The position numbers and the translations under genes are program-made. A stretch of DNA of 17,779 bases from a phage. Each line of letters begins with the position of its first letter. Within the stretch, counting starts at the first letter, position 1. Below, in pieces: positions 4,099 to 15,658 of the stretch. Location: assembly GCA_030820665.1 (NCBI GenBank), contig GCA_030820665.1_4852.1. One strand, written 5' to 3'. The notes beneath the pieces were generated by a model, which saw only the letters and a list, made by a program, of their open reading frames with translations, had not been told where the DNA came from and searched no databases.

Positions 4099-5029
4099 CG
4101 CAAGGCTACCCCAACCGCGCATATCGCAGAGCCTGACAGACCCGCTGGGTGCTGCGACTCGCCTGTCGAAGATGGATAAGGTGATAACGCGCAAATACAA
4201 ACAATTCAGGACTCGTGCTCTTGAGTTGTTTCGCACTATTCCGAACGGTCAGGCTAATGCAGAATCAAGCGGTCTGTATTTCTACGATTTCAGCAGTGCA
4301 CGGGCTGCCACTTTCATGGATGAGTTACAGGCGCTGATTGACGAGATTCTTCTTGAAGGTGATGATTTCGGTCACGGCAGGATGTGGGCCAATGTGTTCA
4401 TTGGTGATGCGTATCAGGCCGGAACACAAAAGGCTAACTCAGAACTGTCAAGCCTGTCTCCGGTTTACGCTGAGCAGAGGCCGATTGCCGCGATACTCTA
4501 CAGTGAGCCTTACCTGAATCGGCTCCAACTGGCTTATACGCAAGGTTACTCAGACTGGCGCGGATTGAGTGATTACTCCCGCCAGCAACTGGCATCTGTC
4601 ATTATGGAAGGCATTGCCCGTGGCGCTAATCCTCGCGATGTTGAAGCTGACATTGTTAAACGTGTTGATGTATCTCACAGCTACGCGAAACAGTTGGCGC
4701 AGACTGAAATAACCGGAACGCTACGTCAGGCTAACAGGCGGGAGGTCATTGAGGCGCGCGAAGAGTTAGGCATTGAGACGGTGATGCTGTGGCAATCGGC
4801 GTTGATGCGCACAACCCGCCAGACGCACGCAGCGCGACACGGACGGTTTTATACACCAGAAGAGATTGACACGTTTTATAGCGAGAATGGCAATAAATAT
4901 AATTGTCACTGTGCACAAACACCAGCATTGCTAATGGATGGGAAACCAGTCATTCTTGAATCCTCGCAGGAAAGGCTTGATAAACAGCGTGAAGCATGGC
5001 AATCAGTCAACAAAAAGCCCTCTAAGTGA
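4079..5029 (+). CDS. Head morphogenesis protein, MuF / SPP1 gp7-like (minor head protein)
   Basis: ORF track 3998-5029; the ATG at 4079 (MKILRF...) overlaps the portal stop by 20 nt. Position after the portal and about 315 aa fit the MuF-like family. Start is uncertain (4172 is an alternative). Confidence 0.65.
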
Positions 5030-6369: not shown

Positions 6370-6432
6370 CACCTCATTCATCACTTGATGTAGATACTAT
6401 GCACCAACAACCAATCTACGTCAACACCATTG

Positions 6433-6441
6433 TGATAGAAT
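6433..6441 (+). promoter_or_regulatory. Candidate extended -10 promoter (TGaTAGAAT) for the lysis cassette
   Basis: TG at 6433-6434, TAGAAT at 6436-6441, about 27 nt upstream of the GGAGG SD of the 6468 gene; lies in a divergent intergenic region. Confidence 0.3.
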
Positions 6442-6467: not shown

Positions 6468-6746
6468 ATGAAACTATCGCAACGAGGCGTGGAGACGTTT
6501 GGAATTACCGATGCCGTGAATATATCGCCTTACATCACTACCGAGACAACGCAGAATCAGTTCGACGCGCTGGCAAGTCTTGCCACCGACATTGGCATTT
6601 ACGCGTTCCGTAAATCAACGCTTCTGAAGAAGCACAACCTCCGCTGCTTCTCATGTGCTGTTGCGCATTTCATCGCGTGGGGCGAGAAGACTGGCGACAA
6701 AGCAAAACGCAAAGCTGAAAAAGAGGTTTACTGGTATGGCTATTAG
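6468..6746 (+). CDS. GH24 (T4/P22-type) lysozyme-like protein, truncated; probably catalytically inactive
   Basis: Strong SD (GGAGG, 5-nt spacer). The C-terminal half, TQNQFDALASLATDIGIYAFRKSTLLKKHNLR...AHFIAWGEKTGDK, matches the conserved C-lobe of GH24 phage lysozymes (recalled P22 gp19-type NQNQYDALCSL..IG.SAF.GSTVLRQLNL...AF..W). The N-terminal catalytic region is reduced to about 27 residues. Confidence 0.55.
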   Translation: MKLSQRGVETFGITDAVNISPYITTETTQNQFDALASLATDIGIYAFRKSTLLKKHNLRCFSCAVAHFIAWGEKTGDKAKRKAEKEVYWYGY

Positions 6747-7200
6747 TAAAAACATGAAGGCGTTTCTGGATATGCTGGCGTACAGCGAGGGCACTGATAA
6801 CGGGCGGCAGAAAACCAATAATCATGGTTATGATGTGATTGTTGGCGGCTCACTGTTTACCGACTATTCCGACCACCCGCGCAAGCTGATTAGCCTGCCA
6901 AGGCTGGGCATTAAATCCACCGCCGCCGGTCGCTATCAGGTACTGGCTAAGTTTTATGATGCGTACAAAAAGCAATTGCGTTTACCGGACTTCTCCCCCG
7001 CATCGCAGGACGCCATTGCAATGCAGCTAATCCGTGAATGCAAGGCCACCGCTGATATTGAGGCTGGTCGCATTGCTGATGCCATCCATAAATGCCGCTC
7101 CCGCTGGGCCTCATTGCCGGGCGCTGGGTATGGTCAGCATGAGCAGAAGCTGGATAAGCTGATTCAGGTATACAAAGAGGCTGGCGGAGCTGTGGCATGA
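6736..7200 (+). CDS. Endolysin, lambda R-type lytic transglycosylase
   Basis: From the ATG at 6736 (AAGAGG SD upstream) the protein is MAISKNMKAFLDMLAYSEGTDNGRQKTNNHGYDVIVGG...WASLPGAGYGQ..., near-colinear with lambda R as recalled, including the catalytic Glu context LAYSEGTD. Confidence 0.88.
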   Translation: MAISKNMKAFLDMLAYSEGTDNGRQKTNNHGYDVIVGGSLFTDYSDHPRKLISLPRLGIKSTAAGRYQVLAKFYDAYKKQLRLPDFSPASQDAIAMQLIRECKATADIEAGRIADAIHKCRSRWASLPGAGYGQHEQKLDKLIQVYKEAGGAVA

Positions 7201-7436
7201 AAAAGCTAAGCAACTGGCTGCTCGCCGCGTGGATTTCATTCTGCTCGCTGTTACAACTATGGCCTGATGCAATGATGCATGTGTGGGTAATGATGCCGGA
7301 TGACCTGAAAGCAGCGCTACCGCTAATCGTGGTCAAAGGTGTGAGTTACTCAATTATGCTTGTCGGCATCATCGGCAAAATGCACGGCATGAGGAAGGAA
7401 AACCGGAGGCTGCGCAATGATGTCGATTCTCGTTAA
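7197..7436 (+). CDS. Putative holin (two predicted TM helices, charged C-terminus)
   Basis: 79 aa; the ATGA overlaps the endolysin stop. Hydrophobic segments LSNWLLAAWISFCSLLQLW and LPLIVVKGVSYSIMLVGIIG, then KMHGMRKENRRLRNDVDSR. Confidence 0.45.
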   Translation: MKKLSNWLLAAWISFCSLLQLWPDAMMHVWVMMPDDLKAALPLIVVKGVSYSIMLVGIIGKMHGMRKENRRLRNDVDSR

Positions 7437-7908
7437 ATACTGGCGACCGCTGGCAATTATTATAATTGTTGCCGCTGGCGCGTTGTGGGTGGCAAATAAA
7501 GTGTCCGGTTATGGCGAGCAACAATATGCCGCCGGATACGCGAAGGCAGTCGCAGAACAGAAGGCCGCAGACGAACAAGAGGAGCAACGACGCAATGCAG
7601 AACTGCAAAAGATTCAGGCCGACGCACAGCAAAGGATTGATGCTGCGCGCAATGATGCTGTTAATGCTGCCGCTAAGTCTGGCAGGTTGCAGCAACAACT
7701 CACCAGTATCCGCAAGCAGCTCGTCGGATATTCCACCGCTGAGTCCATTGGCAACCCAGCCGCAGAAACCGGAGTTTTGCTTGCAGACGTGCTCCGCAAA
7801 TCTGTCGAAAGAAATCAACAGCTGGCAGATTACGCTGACAGGGCGAGAGAGGCAGGATTGACGTGTGAGGCACAGTATAATTCTCTGCGTAATAAAAAAG
7901 CCCCGTGA
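7417..7908 (+). CDS. Rz-like inner-membrane spanin (i-spanin)
   Basis: N-terminal TM helix (LAIIIIVAAGALWVA) followed by a Gln/Ala/Glu/Arg-rich predicted coiled coil; CCGGAGG SD; lies after the endolysin and holin candidate. Confidence 0.75.
   Translation: MMSILVKYWRPLAIIIIVAAGALWVANKVSGYGEQQYAAGYAKAVAEQKAADEQEEQRRNAELQKIQADAQQRIDAARNDAVNAAAKSGRLQQQLTSIRKQLVGYSTAESIGNPAAETGVLLADVLRKSVERNQQLADYADRAREAGLTCEAQYNSLRNKKAP
7640..7861 (+). CDS. Rz1-like outer-membrane lipoprotein spanin (o-spanin), nested in the +1 frame of the Rz-like gene
   Basis: ATG 7640 with AAAGGA SD. Translates MLRAMMLLMLPLSLAGCSNNSPVS...DIPPLSPLATQPQKPEF...: signal peptide, lipobox LAGC, proline-rich periplasmic segment. 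Lies entirely inside 7417-7908. Confidence 0.75.
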   Translation: MLRAMMLLMLPLSLAGCSNNSPVSASSSSDIPPLSPLATQPQKPEFCLQTCSANLSKEINSWQITLTGRERQD

Positions 7909-8585: not shown

Positions 8586-8887
8586 TATTTAATCTCTCCG
8601 TTCAGTTCATTAACAATTAACGTTGCATAGCCAGCAATATCTTTCCAGCTGTCATCATAAGTCGGGTCGCCATTCAGAATGCGCCCAATCTTGTGCTGAA
8701 TCATGTCGAGCGCCTCGCGTTGACTTGGTGTGAGATTGCGCCAGCCATCTACCTTGCGCATCACATCTTTCAACTCCTGCATAATTTCAGCGCCGTCTTT
8801 GAATTTACCGTATCGACTACCGCGTTCGGTGATGAGTCGCTCTGTTGCGTCAGTATGGCGCTTATCGCCCGTGATTTGTGAACTCAT
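8585..8887 (-). CDS. Hypothetical protein (100 aa), probably all-alpha
   Basis: Minus ORF with SD GGAGAA. Translates MSSQITGDKRHTDATERLITERGSRYGKFKDGAEIMQELKD...SQREALDMIQHKIGRILNGDPTYDDSWKDIAGYATLIV. No confident family assignment. Confidence 0.55.
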   Translation of the reverse strand: MSSQITGDKRHTDATERLITERGSRYGKFKDGAEIMQELKDVMRKVDGWRNLTPSQREALDMIQHKIGRILNGDPTYDDSWKDIAGYATLIVNELNGEIK

Positions 8888-9374
8888 TGTGATGCATTCT
8901 CCTGAATTCTTTTATTTTTGCTTCTGCTTCTCTTATGTCGGAAAAGTAACCAACTGTGAATCTTTTGCCATTTACTCCAACTCTTGCATGCCACTTGTTG
9001 TGCGATGAACTCCAGTTAACCCCCTTGATACCGCTAGTGTTGTTTTTGTTCATTGCTTTGTTGTGGCTATTCTCAAATTTGCTGGCCTCCCTTAAATTGC
9101 ACGCCCTGTTGTCATTGCGAATGCCATTAATGTGGTCAATCATTTCACTTGCTGGCGCGCCATGAATGCATATCCATGCCAATCTGTGAGCAAGAAAAGC
9201 CCTACCGCAAAGAATTATTTGCACATATCCATCTGGCTTTAAGTAGCCAGCCACACTCCCTTTTTCTGCAATCCTATTCCTTGTCTTTAGCCATTTAAAT
9301 TCCCCAGTTAGTGGATTGTAGTAAAGGTAACTCAATATAAACTCCCTACTCGGCTCATCTCTCCTATGCCTCAT
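8862..9374 (-). CDS. HNH homing endonuclease (HNH_3-type core with AP2-like C-terminal domain)
   Basis: Motifs YNPLTGEFKW, HRLAWICIHG, IDHINGIRNDNRACNLR and C-terminal SGIKGVNWSSSHNKWHARVGVNGKRFTVGYFSDIREAEAKIKEF. The region looks AT-richer than the flanking sequence. Confidence 0.85.
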   Translation of the reverse strand: MRHRRDEPSREFILSYLYYNPLTGEFKWLKTRNRIAEKGSVAGYLKPDGYVQIILCGRAFLAHRLAWICIHGAPASEMIDHINGIRNDNRACNLREASKFENSHNKAMNKNNTSGIKGVNWSSSHNKWHARVGVNGKRFTVGYFSDIREAEAKIKEFRRMHHNEFTNHGR

Positions 9375-9577: not shown

Positions 9578-9676
9578 ATTTACTACTCCTTCTCGAAAAA
9601 CATCTTGACGTTTCTACATCATTTAGTCAATGCTTGTTGACGTAGATTGTACCACAACGGAAAAGGTGATGTGGAA
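9578..9676. promoter_or_regulatory. Divergent intergenic region, probable promoter(s) for the 9577 minus operon and the 9677 plus block
   Basis: 99-bp AT-rich gap between divergently oriented genes. TTGACG (9606-9611) and TTGACG (9637-9642) on the plus strand; TTGACT and TACAAT-like hexamers on the minus strand. Spacing is not ideal for any single pair. Confidence 0.25.
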
Positions 9677-9934: not shown

Positions 9935-10129
9935 ATGGCGCATGACGAACTGTACGAAGAATCGTTAATCCAGAGGTTGAATGAAGTTGAGCGCACTCGC
10001 GAATGGCTGGAGTGCGAGTTACGAGAAGTGCGCAACCGCCTGCAACGCAAGCGCAGTCAGCAAAGAGATGTCATCGACTGGTCTGGGGGTACACCTAAAT
10101 TTAACAATCTGGGAGAATGGTTGAAATGA
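9935..10129 (+). CDS. Hypothetical protein (64 aa), charged, probably helical
   Basis: GGGAGA SD; its stop overlaps the start of the downstream HNH gene. Confidence 0.45.
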   Translation: MAHDELYEESLIQRLNEVERTREWLECELREVRNRLQRKRSQQRDVIDWSGGTPKFNNLGEWLK

Positions 10130-10656
10130 GCAACATTAGTAAGGAAAGCATTTTAAAGTTCCTCCAGCATGATGAAAATACAGGAAACTTTCTATGGATT
10201 GATAATTTCTCAAGAAAATCAAAGAAAGGGAAGGTGGCTGGAGGTATTACATCGCATGGGTATTGGAGAATTCAACTCCCCATCGGGAGGTTTTACGCAC
10301 ACAGAATGGCGTGGATTGTTTGCAATGGAGATATACCAAACGGATATGAGATTGATCACATAAATGGGAACAAGAAAGATAATCGCATCAGCAACCTAAG
10401 ATTGGTCACAAGAGGTCAAAATGTTATGAATGTAGGCGTGAAAAACAATAATACAAGCGGAGTTAAGGATGTTGTTTGGGACTCTTCGCGAGAAAGGTGG
10501 AGGGTTCAAATTACAGCCAATGGCAAGCATTATTATGGAGGTAGATTCTCGTCAATAACACAAGCAAAAGAGGAGAGGAACAGGCTCATAAAGATGGTTC
10601 ACGGGAAATTTTTGAATACAAAAGGTGAGCAATATGACACTACTAATGAACGATGA
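10126..10656 (+). CDS. HNH homing endonuclease (HNH_3-type core with AP2-like C-terminal domain)
   Basis: Motifs ENTGNFLW, HRMAWIVCNG, IDHINGNKKDNRISNLR and SGVKDVVWDSSRERWRVQITANGKHYYGGRFSS; paralogous to 8862-9374 and to the fragment at 1-168. Start is 10126 or 10117. Confidence 0.85.
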   Translation: MSNISKESILKFLQHDENTGNFLWIDNFSRKSKKGKVAGGITSHGYWRIQLPIGRFYAHRMAWIVCNGDIPNGYEIDHINGNKKDNRISNLRLVTRGQNVMNVGVKNNNTSGVKDVVWDSSRERWRVQITANGKHYYGGRFSSITQAKEERNRLIKMVHGKFLNTKGEQYDTTNER

Positions 10657-12150: not shown

Positions 12151-12335
12151 GCGAACCAAAATTTCCAGAGCTGCCTGTTGAGGTTCAGGTTGCATTGATC
12201 AATGCGGCAAGTGCAATGGCGACAAAGAAGATTGAGGCAATAGGCAGTGATTACAACAGGAGCATAGACTGGTTTCAGAGGGAGTATCAAAAAATCTGCG
12301 ACGCACTCTACAAAGAAAACAGAGGTAGATCATGA
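12147..12335 (+). CDS. Hypothetical protein (62 aa)
   Basis: Coupled ORF; its stop overlaps the next ATG (12332). Confidence 0.45.
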   Translation: MSEPKFPELPVEVQVALINAASAMATKKIEAIGSDYNRSIDWFQREYQKICDALYKENRGRS

Positions 12336-12478
12336 TTTCATTGCTTTGGATATTATCAGCATATGCATTTGCGAGAGTATTTGAGGCCGACACTCTGTAC
12401 CAGATGATTTGCTATGGCGCTCTGTTCTGTCTCTCTGGTGCTGCGCTCGCATTCATTGATGATGTGATTTCAGAATAA
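12332..12478 (+). CDS. Hypothetical small hydrophobic protein (48 aa; below the ORF-track cutoff)
   Basis: ATGA overlap with the upstream gene. Translates MISLLWILSAYAFARVFEADTLYQMICYGALFCLSGAALAFIDDVISE. Confidence 0.35.
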   Translation: MISLLWILSAYAFARVFEADTLYQMICYGALFCLSGAALAFIDDVISE

Positions 12479-12632
12479 CTCCGTATATCTTTTGTTCATC
12501 ATGGGCTGCTATCATTTAATCATGAGGTAGCCCATGAACATAATCCCTATCACTTACTTTCTCACGCTATACGCACTCACCAATTCGCCATTGTTTGCAC
12601 TGGCTACCGCCTCGTGGTGCTATATCTCCCTG

Positions 12633-12641
12633 TGTTATAAT
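12633..12641 (+). promoter_or_regulatory. Candidate extended -10 promoter (TGtTATAAT) for the head operon
   Basis: TG at 12633-12634 and a perfect TATAAT at 12636-12641, about 32 nt upstream of the ATG at 12673 (GGAGAG SD). Preceded by a 194-bp non-coding leader. Confidence 0.45.
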
Positions 12642-12672
12642 TCGACCACAAACTAACCGTGGAGAGTTAACC

Positions 12673-14088
12673 ATGATTGTCAAGATTGGCGATAAGTGGG
12701 TGGTCAAGTCGAAAGACGGCTCACAGCAATTTGGTGAATACGACACAGAAGAGGCAGCAAAAAAACGCCTCGCAGAAGTCGAAGCGTTTAAGCACATGAA
12801 TAATAAATTGCAGGTTAACGTCCTGACAACCATCAATTCAGCCAGCAATATCAGTGAGCAAATCATTGATGGCGACCCGCACTACGTAATTAAAAACGTC
12901 GTGCCAGTGGTTGATGATGTTGTGATGAATAACGGCCTGTATCCGGGAGAGGAAATCCGCAAGAGCTATCACGGACTTGATGGTAAACCTGCACCATACA
13001 ATCACCCGATGATTGACGGTAAATATGTCTCTGCAAGCATGACGCGCGCAGCTAACCAGTTCAGCGTTGGCGCATGGATTGAAAACTCATCTCATGACGG
13101 CAGCAAGGCGCTGGTTGACCTGAAGGTAAACAAAGTCATCGCTGAACGCTCCGAGAAAGGTCAGGAGTTGCTTGGTCGCATTGAAGCGCTAATGAACTCC
13201 GCAGAAGGCGCAGAGCCAATCCATGTATCCACCGGCTTATTGCTCAACCGCGAGGCTACGGAAGGCACAAGCAAAGGCAAAAAATACACATGGATTGCGC
13301 GCAACATGGAATGGGACCATCTCGCCATCCTGCCGCCGGGAGTGCCAGGAGCTGGAACGCCAGAAGATGGTGTTGGAATCTTTGCCACCAACGGCGAGCA
13401 AATCGAACGCATCACCGTAAACCTTGAGGACTCAACCGTGCCAGACGAAAGCGCCAACAAGATTAATTATAAATCGTGGCTACATAAGGCCATCAACTAC
13501 ATCACCAACAAATCAGATTTGTCGTTTGAGAACATCAGTGAGCAGATTCGCCAGATTCTGAAGGCTGAAGTTGGCGAGGATGTCTGGCCTTATATTGTGG
13601 CTGTGTACGACGACCGCGTCGGATTTGAAATCAAAGGCCAGATTTTTCAGCAGCTCTACATCGTTGAAGATGATGTGGTAAAATTGGTCGGTGAGCGGGT
13701 CAAGGCTGTTTATAAAACTGAACTTGAGCCGGTAAAATCAACTGAAGGGGAAATCTCAATGACGAACGAGGAATTACAAGCGGCAGTAGCGGAAGCTACC
13801 AAGTTGGCCGTTAATGAAGCCCTCAAGCCGGTTCAGGAAAAGCTTGATTCCGTCACTGCTGAACTGACCGATGTTAAAGGCAAGCTCGCAGCCAACGCCG
13901 AGCAGGAAGAAACCGCGATGCGTGCTGCTATCATCGCGGAACTGAAACTGCCGGAATCCGCTGTGAATGCGCTGAAAGGCGAAGCACTGCGTGAAACCTA
14001 TGCGTTGACCAGCAAGCCTGCTGCGCTGAAGGGTGGCTTCCAGCCGAACCACGCTGATGACGATTTTGATATGGAGGCACCGGAATAA
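12673..14088 (+). CDS. Putative prohead scaffold / head maturation protein (C-terminal coiled-coil domain)
   Basis: ORF track 12595-14088; ATG 12673 follows GGAGAG. The C-terminal ~110 aa ([48 protein letters not shown]...) is scaffold-like. Position immediately upstream of the small head protein and capsid gene. Confidence 0.55.
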
Positions 14089-14573
14089 TGGCTACTATCC
14101 GTTATGGCACCATCATTGGTGGTCCAGCTCGCAAGAACGACCCGCAGATTCGCGAAGGCATCATGAAGGTCGCGTTGAAGCCGGGCGCACTGGTTGACTT
14201 CGATACTGCCTCCTCAATTCGTTCCAATTATGACAAAATCATCGCACACGCTACCGCTGGCGGTCAGGGATTCCCTTACGTGCTTCAGCATAACTATCTC
14301 GGTGGTGGCGATGTATCTGAATCAGTTCCTGCTAATGCTACTGGCATGGCTGTGCAGTGCGAATTTGGCGTCACCTATCACGCACTGGTTGCTGCATCTT
14401 CCGAGCTGAAGAAAGGCACCCCGTTGGCAAGTAATGGTACTGGCGCGCTGAAAGTTGCTGGTAATAGGGATAACATCCTGTTCTATTCTTATGAAACTTA
14501 CACCGTTGCCTCTGATGGCGCTGAGCTGGTTGCAGTTCGTCGCGCTGGCAATGCTTCCATGCCTGCGGCGTAA
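14088..14573 (+). CDS. Putative head decoration / auxiliary capsid protein (161 aa)
   Basis: TAATG overlap with the scaffold stop; lies between the scaffold-like gene and the capsid gene; Gly/Ala/Thr-rich, beta-type composition. Confidence 0.45.
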
Positions 14574-14584
14574 GGAGCCGAATA

Positions 14585-15658
14585 ATGGAAAAGATTATTT
14601 TTACCAAAGACTTGGTAGCCAACTCCGCAGTGGTGGCTGACCAGTGGAAACATCTCACCATCGACCGCAAGGTGTTCTGCAATGCAGAAGCTGAACTGGC
14701 GAAAACATACGGTGTTAACGCCACCGCGCTGGTAACGAAAGATTACTGGCGCGACGTGGATAACGTCACCACCCGTGTTTTCCGCAACGAAGCTGGCCAG
14801 GACATGATGGCTGACCTGATGGGTATCGCGGCAAACATTAACATTGGTAAGACTGTGGCAATCAGCCGCATTGCTTCCGATGCTGGCAAGGTAGTCCGCA
14901 CTCTGTCTGGTCAGGAGCCGGAAGACTTGGATAAAACTCGCTACGATTACACTGGCGACGTGATTCCAATCTTCAAAACTGGCTACAGCCGCGAATGGCG
15001 CGAACTGCTGGGTATGCAGTCTGAAGGTTTTGACCCCCTGCTGGACGATCAGGCTAACGTCACCTTTAACCTACGTTCCGACATGGCGCAGTATCTGCTG
15101 ACCGGCGACCAGACTCTGAACGTGAACGGCGTTTACACTGGCTACGGTATCACCAACCACCCGAACACCATTCAGGTCGACCTGAACGTTTCCAATGGCA
15201 GCCTGAAGATCGACCTGCAAACCGCAACGCCAGATGAAATCGTGAAATTCTTCAATCAGGATTTCCAGGCTATTCTGGATGCGCAGAACGTATTTGAGCA
15301 GGTGACTCTGTGGGTTTCCCCGGCAGTGCGTCGCAGTTTCATGCGTCCGTATTCTGATGCGGCTGGCTTCAAAGGCGGCACGGTTGAGCAGTACATCACG
15401 CAGTTCGGTAATGGTCGCATTGGTAAGATTGGCACCAACTTCCTGCTGACTGGCAACCATTTCGTTGGTTACGTTCGCAACGACATGTACATCCGTCCGC
15501 GTGTTGCTCAGCCTGTCTCCACCTATGCGGCAGCTCGCACCAACCCGCACGATAACTTTAACTTCCTCGTATGGTCTGCTTTCGGTCTGCAGATTCGCAA
15601 GGATGCCGCTGGAAAAAGCCGCGTCTTTAATTGCTATGGTAGCCAGAAAGCTAAATAA
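14585..15658 (+). CDS. Major capsid protein (putative)
   Basis: 357-aa ORF with a strong AAGGAG SD, last gene of the scaffold-decoration-capsid block, followed by a strong terminator. Confidence 0.65.
   Translation: MEKIIFTKDLVANSAVVADQWKHLTIDRKVFCNAEAELAKTYGVNATALVTKDYWRDVDNVTTRVFRNEAGQDMMADLMGIAANINIGKTVAISRIASDAGKVVRTLSGQEPEDLDKTRYDYTGDVIPIFKTGYSREWRELLGMQSEGFDPLLDDQANVTFNLRSDMAQYLLTGDQTLNVNGVYTGYGITNHPNTIQVDLNVSNGSLKIDLQTATPDEIVKFFNQDFQAILDAQNVFEQVTLWVSPAVRRSFMRPYSDAAGFKGGTVEQYITQFGNGRIGKIGTNFLLTGNHFVGYVRNDMYIRPRVAQPVSTYAAARTNPHDNFNFLVWSAFGLQIRKDAAGKSRVFNCYGSQKAK

Follow-up and report, generated by a model that had tools for sequence, protein, structure and literature searches.

Several phage messenger RNAs keep a ribosome-binding site inside a hairpin, among them the early transcripts of T4 genes e and soc, the 'sdi' structure of lambda S and the replicase operator of MS2. 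The sequestered start of a small hydrophobic peptide is likewise the usual anatomy of hok-, tisB- and ldr-type mRNAs. On the transcriptional side, a consensus extended −10 element can be used by σ70 RNA polymerase without a −35 hexamer and needs no activator. Here, we describe 194 bp (positions 12479–12672) of a 17,779-nucleotide (nt) phage DNA (contig GCA_030820665.1_4852.1; the whole of this stretch is called the window below) in which elements of all three kinds appear to be superimposed: a gene for a 40-residue hydrophobic peptide, a predicted RNA hairpin over its ribosome-binding site and a putative extended −10 promoter in its last codons, directly ahead of a capsid protease/scaffold-like gene.

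As in T4 e and soc, lambda S and the MS2 operator, the 3′ arm of the hairpin carries the Shine–Dalgarno sequence and/or the start codon, and changes in the complementary arm appear to conserve the stem. T4 e and soc have a bypass promoter, for which this locus offers a candidate; the dual start of lambda S is absent, and a conserved loop to which a protein could bind, as in the MS2 operator, is missing (the Rfam match to the latter, at 12.4 bits where the gathering score is 40, is noise). In the hok/sok, tisB/istR and ldr/rdl systems, too, mRNA structure covers the translation start of a small hydrophobic peptide, but here no antitoxin RNA was found by consensus scan or in Rfam, no sequence family matches and the setting is a phage morphogenesis locus. 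The Rho-gated leaders of tna and mgtA/corA also place a short open reading frame (ORF) before an operon, in C-rich, G-poor RNA that is naked if untranslated, whereas the present peptide is conserved over its full length like a functional protein. The −10 element matches the extended −10 σ70 promoters of Escherichia coli and phages in its exact 9-mer, in having no usable −35, in a purine 7 nt downstream and in its place about 30 nt ahead of the gene that opens an operon; it differs, as read from the sequence, in lying inside the coding sequence of another gene, where each base serves two codes. Each layer is of a known kind. What is new is the gene family, found neither in PHROGs v4 nor in most annotations, together with the close superposition of the three layers.

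Phages compared

Over 2 kb around the locus the window is 88–94% identical to siphophages of Escherichia, Salmonella and Shigella (e.g. Bas77–81, Sf11, IME207, swi2, C1 and seszw), and on this identity the window phage is Skatevirus-type. The BASEL paper places Bas77–81 in a Skatevirus cluster, with the Klebsiella genus Roufvirus as the outgroup. The comparison set comprises 74 IMG/VR loci retrieved via the protease protein, plus GenBank loci. Three groups are distinguished: a close E. coli/Salmonella clade (35 distinct sequences), a Klebsiella Roufvirus-like clade (38 distinct sequences; protease identity about 75%) and Salmonella phage CF-SP1 (protease identity 80%).

A 40-codon gene under purifying selection

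The first-pass annotation described the 194 bp as a gap or long leader containing a GAGGT Shine–Dalgarno sequence, an ATG at 12534 and a possible 40-codon hydrophobic ORF. All of these are present and the translation is identical, but 123 of the 194 bp are coding, and most of the region is therefore not leader. The substitution pattern indicates that the ORF is a real protein-coding gene under purifying selection. Conservation in relatives, the check proposed for it at the time, is borne out: the length is exactly 40 codons in 71 of the 74 sequences and in all three clades, the exceptions being a metagenomic contig with a 2-nt insertion (a frameshift), one stop-loss and an altered C-terminus in phage Akira. 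Variable sites at first, second and third codon positions number 7, 7 and 20 for the close clade and 12, 5 and 25 for the Klebsiella clade, an excess at third positions (20/34 and 25/42) with p of about 0.001 and about 0.0004, respectively (normal approximation to the binomial). The Nei–Gojobori ratio of nonsynonymous to synonymous substitution rates (dN/dS) in frame is 0.22 between the window and locus L053, 0.14 between L053 and L074 and 0.05 between the window and L027; in the two other frames of the same stretches it is 1.0–2.6. A long − strand ORF (12567–12866) overlaps the gene and is rejected as the selected frame because the variable sites would fall on its first codon positions. An ATG at 12501, in the 5′ arm of the hairpin, opens a 9-codon mini-ORF that we also reject: it has no Shine–Dalgarno sequence and its frame or length varies between clades, and the presence of this ATG follows from CATG being self-complementary.

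Between clades the peptides are 48–53% identical in amino-acid sequence and share the pattern M-x-I-I-x-I-[ST]-[YF]-F ... T-x-S-P ... S-W-C ... [CW]-Y-N. The grand average of hydropathy ranges from 0.74 to 1.48 across the 74 sequences, and the window copy is without charged residues, having neither Lys nor Arg. An AlphaFold model places helices at residues 3–16 and 19–39 with a break at Ser18–Pro19 (mean predicted local distance difference test score of 75). The peptide is probably membrane-inserted. A lipoprotein signal was considered and rejected, as the residues before Cys29 (A-S-W-C) do not fit the general lipobox criterion.

No match to the peptide was obtained in Pfam, NCBIfam or PHROGs (v4), the PADLOC library not having been searched, and Rfam at a permissive E-value returned only noise (best hit 21 bits, the gathering score being 70). 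When 5.8 billion proteins were searched with a profile, only seven clusters were obtained, six of them 40–61-residue relatives of the peptide and one a weak match (E = 0.003) with no more than the first 19 residues of the peptide in common. No characterized protein was linked to the peptide by this search. In GenBank the gene is given as a hypothetical protein in a minority of records (Bas77–81, AB4P2 and several Klebsiella phages), while most leave the stretch empty.

Two clones from the CiPGr genome-reduction series of phage seszw (MZ375351 and MZ375352) carry a peptide that is 95.0%, not 97.5%, identical to that of the window (tblastn). The extra difference in clone 290S (MZ375352; L078 2128–2247) reads as Ser18 to Pro (TCG>CCG) and is likely to be a change of that clone, because proline is found at position 18 in none of the natural relatives.

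A predicted RNA hairpin over the ribosome-binding site

The inverted repeat reported earlier, CATGGGCT (12500–12507) and AGCCCATG (12529–12536) with a 21-nt spacer, is present as described, and it forms the core of a larger RNA stem. The 5′ arm (12499–12510) and the 3′ arm (12526–12537) make 12 base pairs, three of them G·U, around the loop 12511–12525, and three lower pairs join 12493–12495 to 12538–12540. The predicted free energy of −22.9 kcal/mol corresponds to a z-score of −5.5 to −5.9 (about −5.5 in three clades), and none of 200 shuffled sequences folds as well. The 3′ arm takes in the GGU of the Shine–Dalgarno sequence, the spacer and the start codon (AUG) of the small ORF, which identifies translation of that ORF as the likely target of the hairpin.

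Among the 61 ORF starts in the window that are preceded by a Shine–Dalgarno sequence, this one is the most occluded. From Shine–Dalgarno sequence to AUG the mean probability of being unpaired is 0.087 versus a median of 0.47, and the free energy is to be compared with a median of −10.7 kcal/mol. The window copy is also the most tightly closed of its clade. Position 12523 is T in the window alone and G in all 73 related sequences, which read GGAGG(T/C) there; the change reduces the Shine–Dalgarno sequence from GGAGG to GAGG, and the tight closure results from the short upper helix UCAU/AUGA that it adds.

Equivalent hairpins are found in 74 of 74 relatives, with free energies of −17.5 to −26.0 kcal/mol and a probability of being unpaired of 0.02–0.26 from Shine–Dalgarno sequence to AUG. 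The Klebsiella clade has a stem of 15–16 bp that encloses the whole of AGGAGGU and the AUG (−25 kcal/mol), and that of CF-SP1 has 13 pairs, one bulge and three more pairs near the loop (−23.9 kcal/mol). Stem cells are paired in 98.8% (close clade) and 95.8% of cases, versus 33–70% in slid controls (33–46% in the close clade when the partner is moved by 1–3 nt). The three unpaired cells of the close clade lie at pair 12499/12537, the base of the main stem, and at pair 12494/12539 in the middle of the lower helix. All six distinct substitutions inside the main stem of the close clade retain a standard pair: three are C>U opposite G, one is A>G opposite U, and the G·U pair 12508/12528 is changed once to A-U and once to G-C. 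We estimate p at about 0.001–0.02 for this outcome, taking a third to a half of changes as kept if there were no structure. Loop positions in the same clade accept transversions.

Between clades, the spacer from Shine–Dalgarno sequence to AUG is 6, 7 or 8 nt long (UAGCCC, UGCAGCC and UAGCAGCC), and in a hand alignment the 5′ arm changes to match it (CAUGGGCUGCU, CAUGGCUGCUACC and CGUGGCUGUUACC); an AG insertion in the 3′ arm, for example, is paralleled by CU in the 5′ arm. We regard the covariation of the stem as suggestive, not proven. The RNA of the + strand folds more stably than that of the − strand (−22.9 versus −17.8 and −23.9 versus −21.2 kcal/mol) because of the G·U pairs. The annotation had left open whether the repeat was an operator or an RNA hairpin. 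The Shine–Dalgarno/AUG arm and the G·U-compatible changes speak for the hairpin, and the inverted repeat fits occlusion of the ribosome-binding site of the small ORF at the RNA level.

A putative promoter within the gene

The TGtTATAAT at 12633–12641 was likewise noted correctly; the next ATG is at 12673. The element consists of TG at 12633–12634, one free base and the hexamer TATAAT at 12636–12641, which is a 6/6 match in every sequence. Within the ORF it occupies offsets 99–107, in the codons for Leu33-Cys34-Tyr35-Asn36. All 74 related sequences have TGnTATAAT at this position, 30–31 nt before the protease ATG. In the two main clades TGTTATAAT is invariant in 73 of 73, three synonymous third positions included, and in the rest of the ORF synonymous change is abundant. 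CF-SP1 has TGGTATAAT, in which the sole change is at the free base and converts Cys34 to Trp. As only the free base is changed and the amino acid is altered, it is the DNA motif that is held and not the residue.

In phage Akira (L025 1529–2961) a reverse-oriented gene of 465 amino acids (DUF723, REase_MTES_1575-like) and a bidirectional terminator stand between the small ORF and the protease gene. The gene is probably a homing-endonuclease-type element. It is inserted directly after the −10 of the ORF, so that the C-terminus of the peptide becomes ...TTKKGVK, and a second copy of the motif, TGATATAAT, lies exactly 30 nt before the protease ATG in otherwise unrelated upstream sequence.

No −35 better than 2/6 was found at a spacing of 16–18 nt, and a consensus scan calls no −35/−10 promoter here. 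The standard spacing from the −10 would place the transcription start at an A that is found at the same offset in both main clades; the resulting 5′ untranslated region of 25 nt would contain the GGAG of the protease gene. TGnTATAAT is under constraint at the DNA level and at a fixed spacing, as expected of a promoter, and would be predicted to fire. Of the 'regulated late promoter' proposed earlier, the promoter gains support from the invariant −10 and the fixed 30–31 nt, while nothing shows it to be either late or regulated. Control of this promoter by the repeat, also proposed, is not supported: the repeat, about 125 nt further upstream, is not placed to act on the promoter, and its 3′ arm is formed by the Shine–Dalgarno sequence and AUG of the small ORF. 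A further candidate in this part of the gene, an anti-Shine–Dalgarno element for the protease gene (AUCUCC at 12623–12628 pairing with GGAGAG in read-through RNA), was rejected since it is not conserved in the Klebsiella clade.

The other perfect TGnTATAAT of the window, TGCTATAAT at 2641–2649, lies 37 nt upstream of the portal ATG at 2686. It is directly followed by a terminator-like hairpin, CCCATC-N6-GATGGG with a T-run (2641–2676 for the whole), and a promoter adjoining a terminator is odd.

Genomic context

The coordinates of the features are collected in Table 1. The 48-residue gene that precedes the 194 bp is the last member of a + strand block of small genes starting at about 9647; its stop codon is at 12476–12478, and it is annotated in Bas79 and IME207 and missing from the Klebsiella clade. 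The protease/scaffold-like gene has weak matches to head maturation protease and DUF2213 and is named prohead protease, DUF2213 or 'coat protein' in the records of relatives.

Table 1. Features of the 194 bp region and its flanks (positions in the window)
Feature	Position	Strand	Basis or remark
48-amino-acid hydrophobic protein gene, phrog_18423, function unknown	12332–12478	+	ORF; PHROG match, E = 6e-34
RNA stem-loop	12493–12540	+	−22.9 kcal/mol; equivalents in 74 relatives
Second extended −10-like element TGcTATCAT (TGCTATCAT), speculative	12507–12515	+	One-mismatch match
Shine–Dalgarno sequence of the small ORF, GAGGT; its GGT in the 3′ arm	12524–12528	+	Sequence
40-amino-acid hydrophobic peptide gene, MNIIPITYFLTLYALTNSPLFALATASWCYISLCYNSTTN	12534–12656 (TAA 12654–12656)	+	Codon conservation, dN/dS
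Extended −10 TGtTATAAT (TGTTATAAT); putative promoter of protease/scaffold, decoration and major capsid genes	12633–12641	+	Invariant, fixed spacing
Inferred transcription start, A, 7 nt after the −10	12648	+	Standard −10-to-start spacing
Shine–Dalgarno sequence GGAG (12661–12664) and ATG (12673) of the protease/scaffold gene	12661–12675	+	Sequence, ORF list
Capsid protease/scaffold-like gene, 471 amino acids	12673–14088	+	phrog_760, E = 4e-143
Decoration protein	14088–14573		Downstream head gene
Major capsid protein (DUF6260)	14585–15658		Downstream head gene

The MuF-like head-morphogenesis gene ends at 5029, so that about 7.6 kb separates it from the protease gene. This interval holds − strand genes, the lysis cassette (6468–7908), further − strand genes and the + strand small-gene block. 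Homologous protease/scaffold genes (36–42% identity) are present in Providencia phage PSTNGR2lys, Erwinia phage vB_EhrS_59 and Mannheimia phage 587AP2, and there the MuF-like gene adjoins the protease gene; neither the small ORF nor TGnTATAAT is found at the MuF–protease junction of these three. The comparison suggests that about 7.6 kb was inserted between the MuF and protease genes in the present lineage, cutting the head genes from the packaging/portal operon. Head genes cut off in this way would be expected to have a promoter of their own.

The first 43 codons of the protease/scaffold gene (12673–12801) form an optional module with a weak match to phrog_3684 (E = 1.6e-5). The module is present in the E. 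coli-type and Klebsiella clades and not in the Salmonella Skatevirus relatives, seszw or CF-SP1; module-less relatives start at the equivalent of Met44, straight after the same GGAG. On the − strand at 12829–12800 lies TTGTCA-18-TATTAT (10/12), the best promoter-like site of the scan, directly followed by a terminator-like hairpin with a T-run (12789–12763). Both are within the optional N-terminal module, and the pair (12763–12829) could be a tiny antisense RNA or chance.

Further observations concern other parts of the window. A perfect 15-nt inverted pair, CAATCTACGTCAACA / TGTTGACGTAGATTG, occurs at 6412–6426 (+) and 9635–9649, the only two exact copies in the window and both intergenic. 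The first copy is 10 nt upstream of TGATAGAAT (6433–6441), ahead of the ATG of the lysis cassette at 6468, and the second overlaps TGGTACAAT on the − strand (9654–9646) in the divergent control region 9578–9646. A partial copy, CCAATCTAC, lies near 1608 beside TTGACC...TAGTATAAT. The pair has the look of a shared operator or of a site associated with promoters. At 8862–9374 (−) and 10117–10656 (+) lie two paralogous HNH/AP2-like endonuclease ORFs, which encode 170 and 179 amino acids with the common motifs LWI/WLK...GYLKPDGY/GITSHGYW...HRLAW...IDHINGI/N. Bas79 and IME207 have neither of them at the equivalent positions, so the two are probably mobile insertions.

A model for the module

From the coding constraint, the structural conservation of the hairpin, the predicted occlusion and the constraint on the −10 with its fixed spacing, we propose a three-layer module of peptide gene, hairpin-locked ribosome-binding site and in-gene capsid promoter, a reading that we consider moderately probable. 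We infer that the hairpin lowers translation, that the −10 fires and that the peptide has a role. The module sits at the boundary of the presumably inserted small-gene block and the capsid genes. In transcripts reading through from the block, the Shine–Dalgarno sequence and AUG of the peptide gene would pair with the upstream anti-Shine–Dalgarno/anti-AUG arm at −20 to −26 kcal/mol. Helices of −20 kcal/mol or below over a ribosome-binding site reportedly cut initiation by orders of magnitude in thermodynamic work on the MS2 coat gene. Such occlusion in cis would strongly throttle initiation, and may keep a potentially toxic peptide low or limit it to conditions in which the hairpin is missing or open. 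Host σ70 RNA polymerase would start about 25 nt before the protease/scaffold ATG from the −10 in the last codons of the gene, and the protease, decoration and major-capsid genes would be transcribed from this internal promoter whether or not read-through occurs.

Several points weigh against this model. In a stretch as long as the window, one perfect TGnTATAAT could well arise by chance; there are two on both strands of the 17.8 kb, a count that alone is not significant, and the weight of the motif comes from its conservation at the same position in 74 of 74 sequences. The in-ORF copy of Akira cannot serve the head genes because the terminator follows at once. The support from covariation consists of G·U-compatible single changes and hand-aligned differences between clades; double-sided compensatory changes number zero within either clade, for which reason the shuffle control is flat and uninformative. 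The literature searched on Jerseyvirus/Guernseyvirinae, Skatevirus, Roufvirus, Swiduovirus and Shuimuvirus yielded no transcriptomics or promoter mapping, and transcript, ribosome and protein data for this phage group are absent from it. In the CiPGr series the region is present in every clone; the unannotated ORF was never a deletion target, and the clones therefore say nothing on essentiality.

A near-silencing hairpin on a gene under purifying selection implies some mechanism of opening, since a peptide under selection must be made. Opening through coupling to the upstream gene is judged unlikely, because the stop of that gene is 15–21 nt before the stem, beyond the expected reach of the ribosome.

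Alternative explanations

The locked gene could be translated from transcripts that lack the 5′ arm. Suitably placed across the 5′ arm and loop, TGCTATCAT is a second, weaker candidate extended −10 with one mismatch, and transcription from it would start at about 12522; the peptide would be made from these transcripts only, with read-through RNA silent. The pattern TGnTAnnnT followed by GGAGG 7 nt on is kept in all three clades, and one-mismatch sites on the + strand cluster before gene starts in intergenic gaps (1625, 2641, 6433, 12507 and 16526). Such a bypass would account for translation of a locked gene. However, the hexamer is TACCTT (3/6) in the Klebsiella clade and TACCAT (4/6) in CF-SP1, the TG is lost in two close-clade sequences (L015 and L024), and the motif is mostly dictated by pairing with GGTAGC. 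We consider this bypass unlikely.

The composition of the ORF raises the question of Rho. The stretch 12531–12608 has 28 C and 8 G, which puts it in the top 0.5% of 78-nt windows and makes it the most C-rich, G-poor such stretch among the + strand genes (the other top windows listed are in blocks of − strand ORFs). Similar windows with C in excess of G are found in all clades, and no U-tract terminator is called between the small-gene block and the capsid genes. Ribosome-free RNA of this kind could load Rho and stop transcription of the small-gene block before the capsid genes, but this is improbable: the excess of C comes from amino-acid choice, the third codon positions are not depleted in G, selection at the amino-acid level shows that the ORF is translated and the remaining RNA is predicted to be fairly structured. 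Equally improbable is the corollary that the capsid genes are served by the internal promoter only and that an opened hairpin couples translation of the peptide to read-through.

Hairpin, ORF and promoter might also act jointly as a translation-gated insulator between early and late transcription, an idea with a slim chance of being right. Read-through of the locked, C-rich ORF would be ended by Rho, translation of the peptide would license it and the −10 would give basal capsid transcription, which we find about as doubtful. The peptide would then be translated from transcripts starting inside the hairpin or when the hairpin melts, and the prospects of this part are similarly slender. If true, the arrangement would be an insulator in a phage that relies wholly on host RNA polymerase.

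A 40-residue hydrophobic peptide with a sequestered Shine–Dalgarno sequence and AUG also recalls type I toxins, that is a membrane toxin silenced by mRNA structure and by an antisense RNA. We think this very unlikely here, given that the consensus scan, which cannot exclude one, finds no promoter-like site on the − strand of 12479–12672, that no Rfam, Pfam, NCBIfam or PHROG family matches (the PADLOC defence library was not searched) and that the family does not extend beyond the protein clusters and phage records obtained along with this head module.

The hairpin is annotated as a rho-independent terminator, by WebGeSTer, in the record of Escherichia phage vB_EcoS_ASO78B (MZ726796), and a stable stem containing G+C right after the last gene of the small-gene block could close that block. 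The promoters and terminators in the ASO78B paper are purely computational. A U-run follows the stem in none of the clades (flanks AACAUAAUCCC, CCAAUCAUACUG and UUCAUAACUCAA), our terminator scan does not call the hairpin, and a 3′ arm that is exactly the Shine–Dalgarno sequence and AUG of a selected ORF is not needed by a terminator, which leaves this explanation highly improbable.

Least likely of all, and barely credible, is a DNA operator at which a dimeric phage or host regulator binds to control the head promoter: the 8-bp inverted repeat is perfect and lies in a conserved intergenic stretch, but about 125 bp separate the site from the −10 downstream, the sequence and length of the arms and the distance between them vary between clades (loop of about 15 versus 8 nt), the compatibility of the substitutions with G·U pairing holds for one strand only and is meaningless for duplex DNA, and the repeat is found nowhere else in the window.

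Implications

Most GenBank records of a widely isolated group of Salmonella, E. coli and Klebsiella phages, as well as PHROGs v4, lack a conserved gene, and in one record (that of ASO78B) its hairpin is mis-annotated as a terminator. For phage engineering, including the Skatevirus and Roufvirus candidates for therapy and genome reduction by CiPGr, the 194 bp are not spacer: an edit made there affects at once a gene, the predicted lock on its translation and the probable promoter of the capsid genes. The locus is also a case of DNA serving two codes, in which the change of Cys34 to Trp at the free base of the putative promoter shows which code wins, and it would provide an example of a split head module acquiring a promoter of its own.

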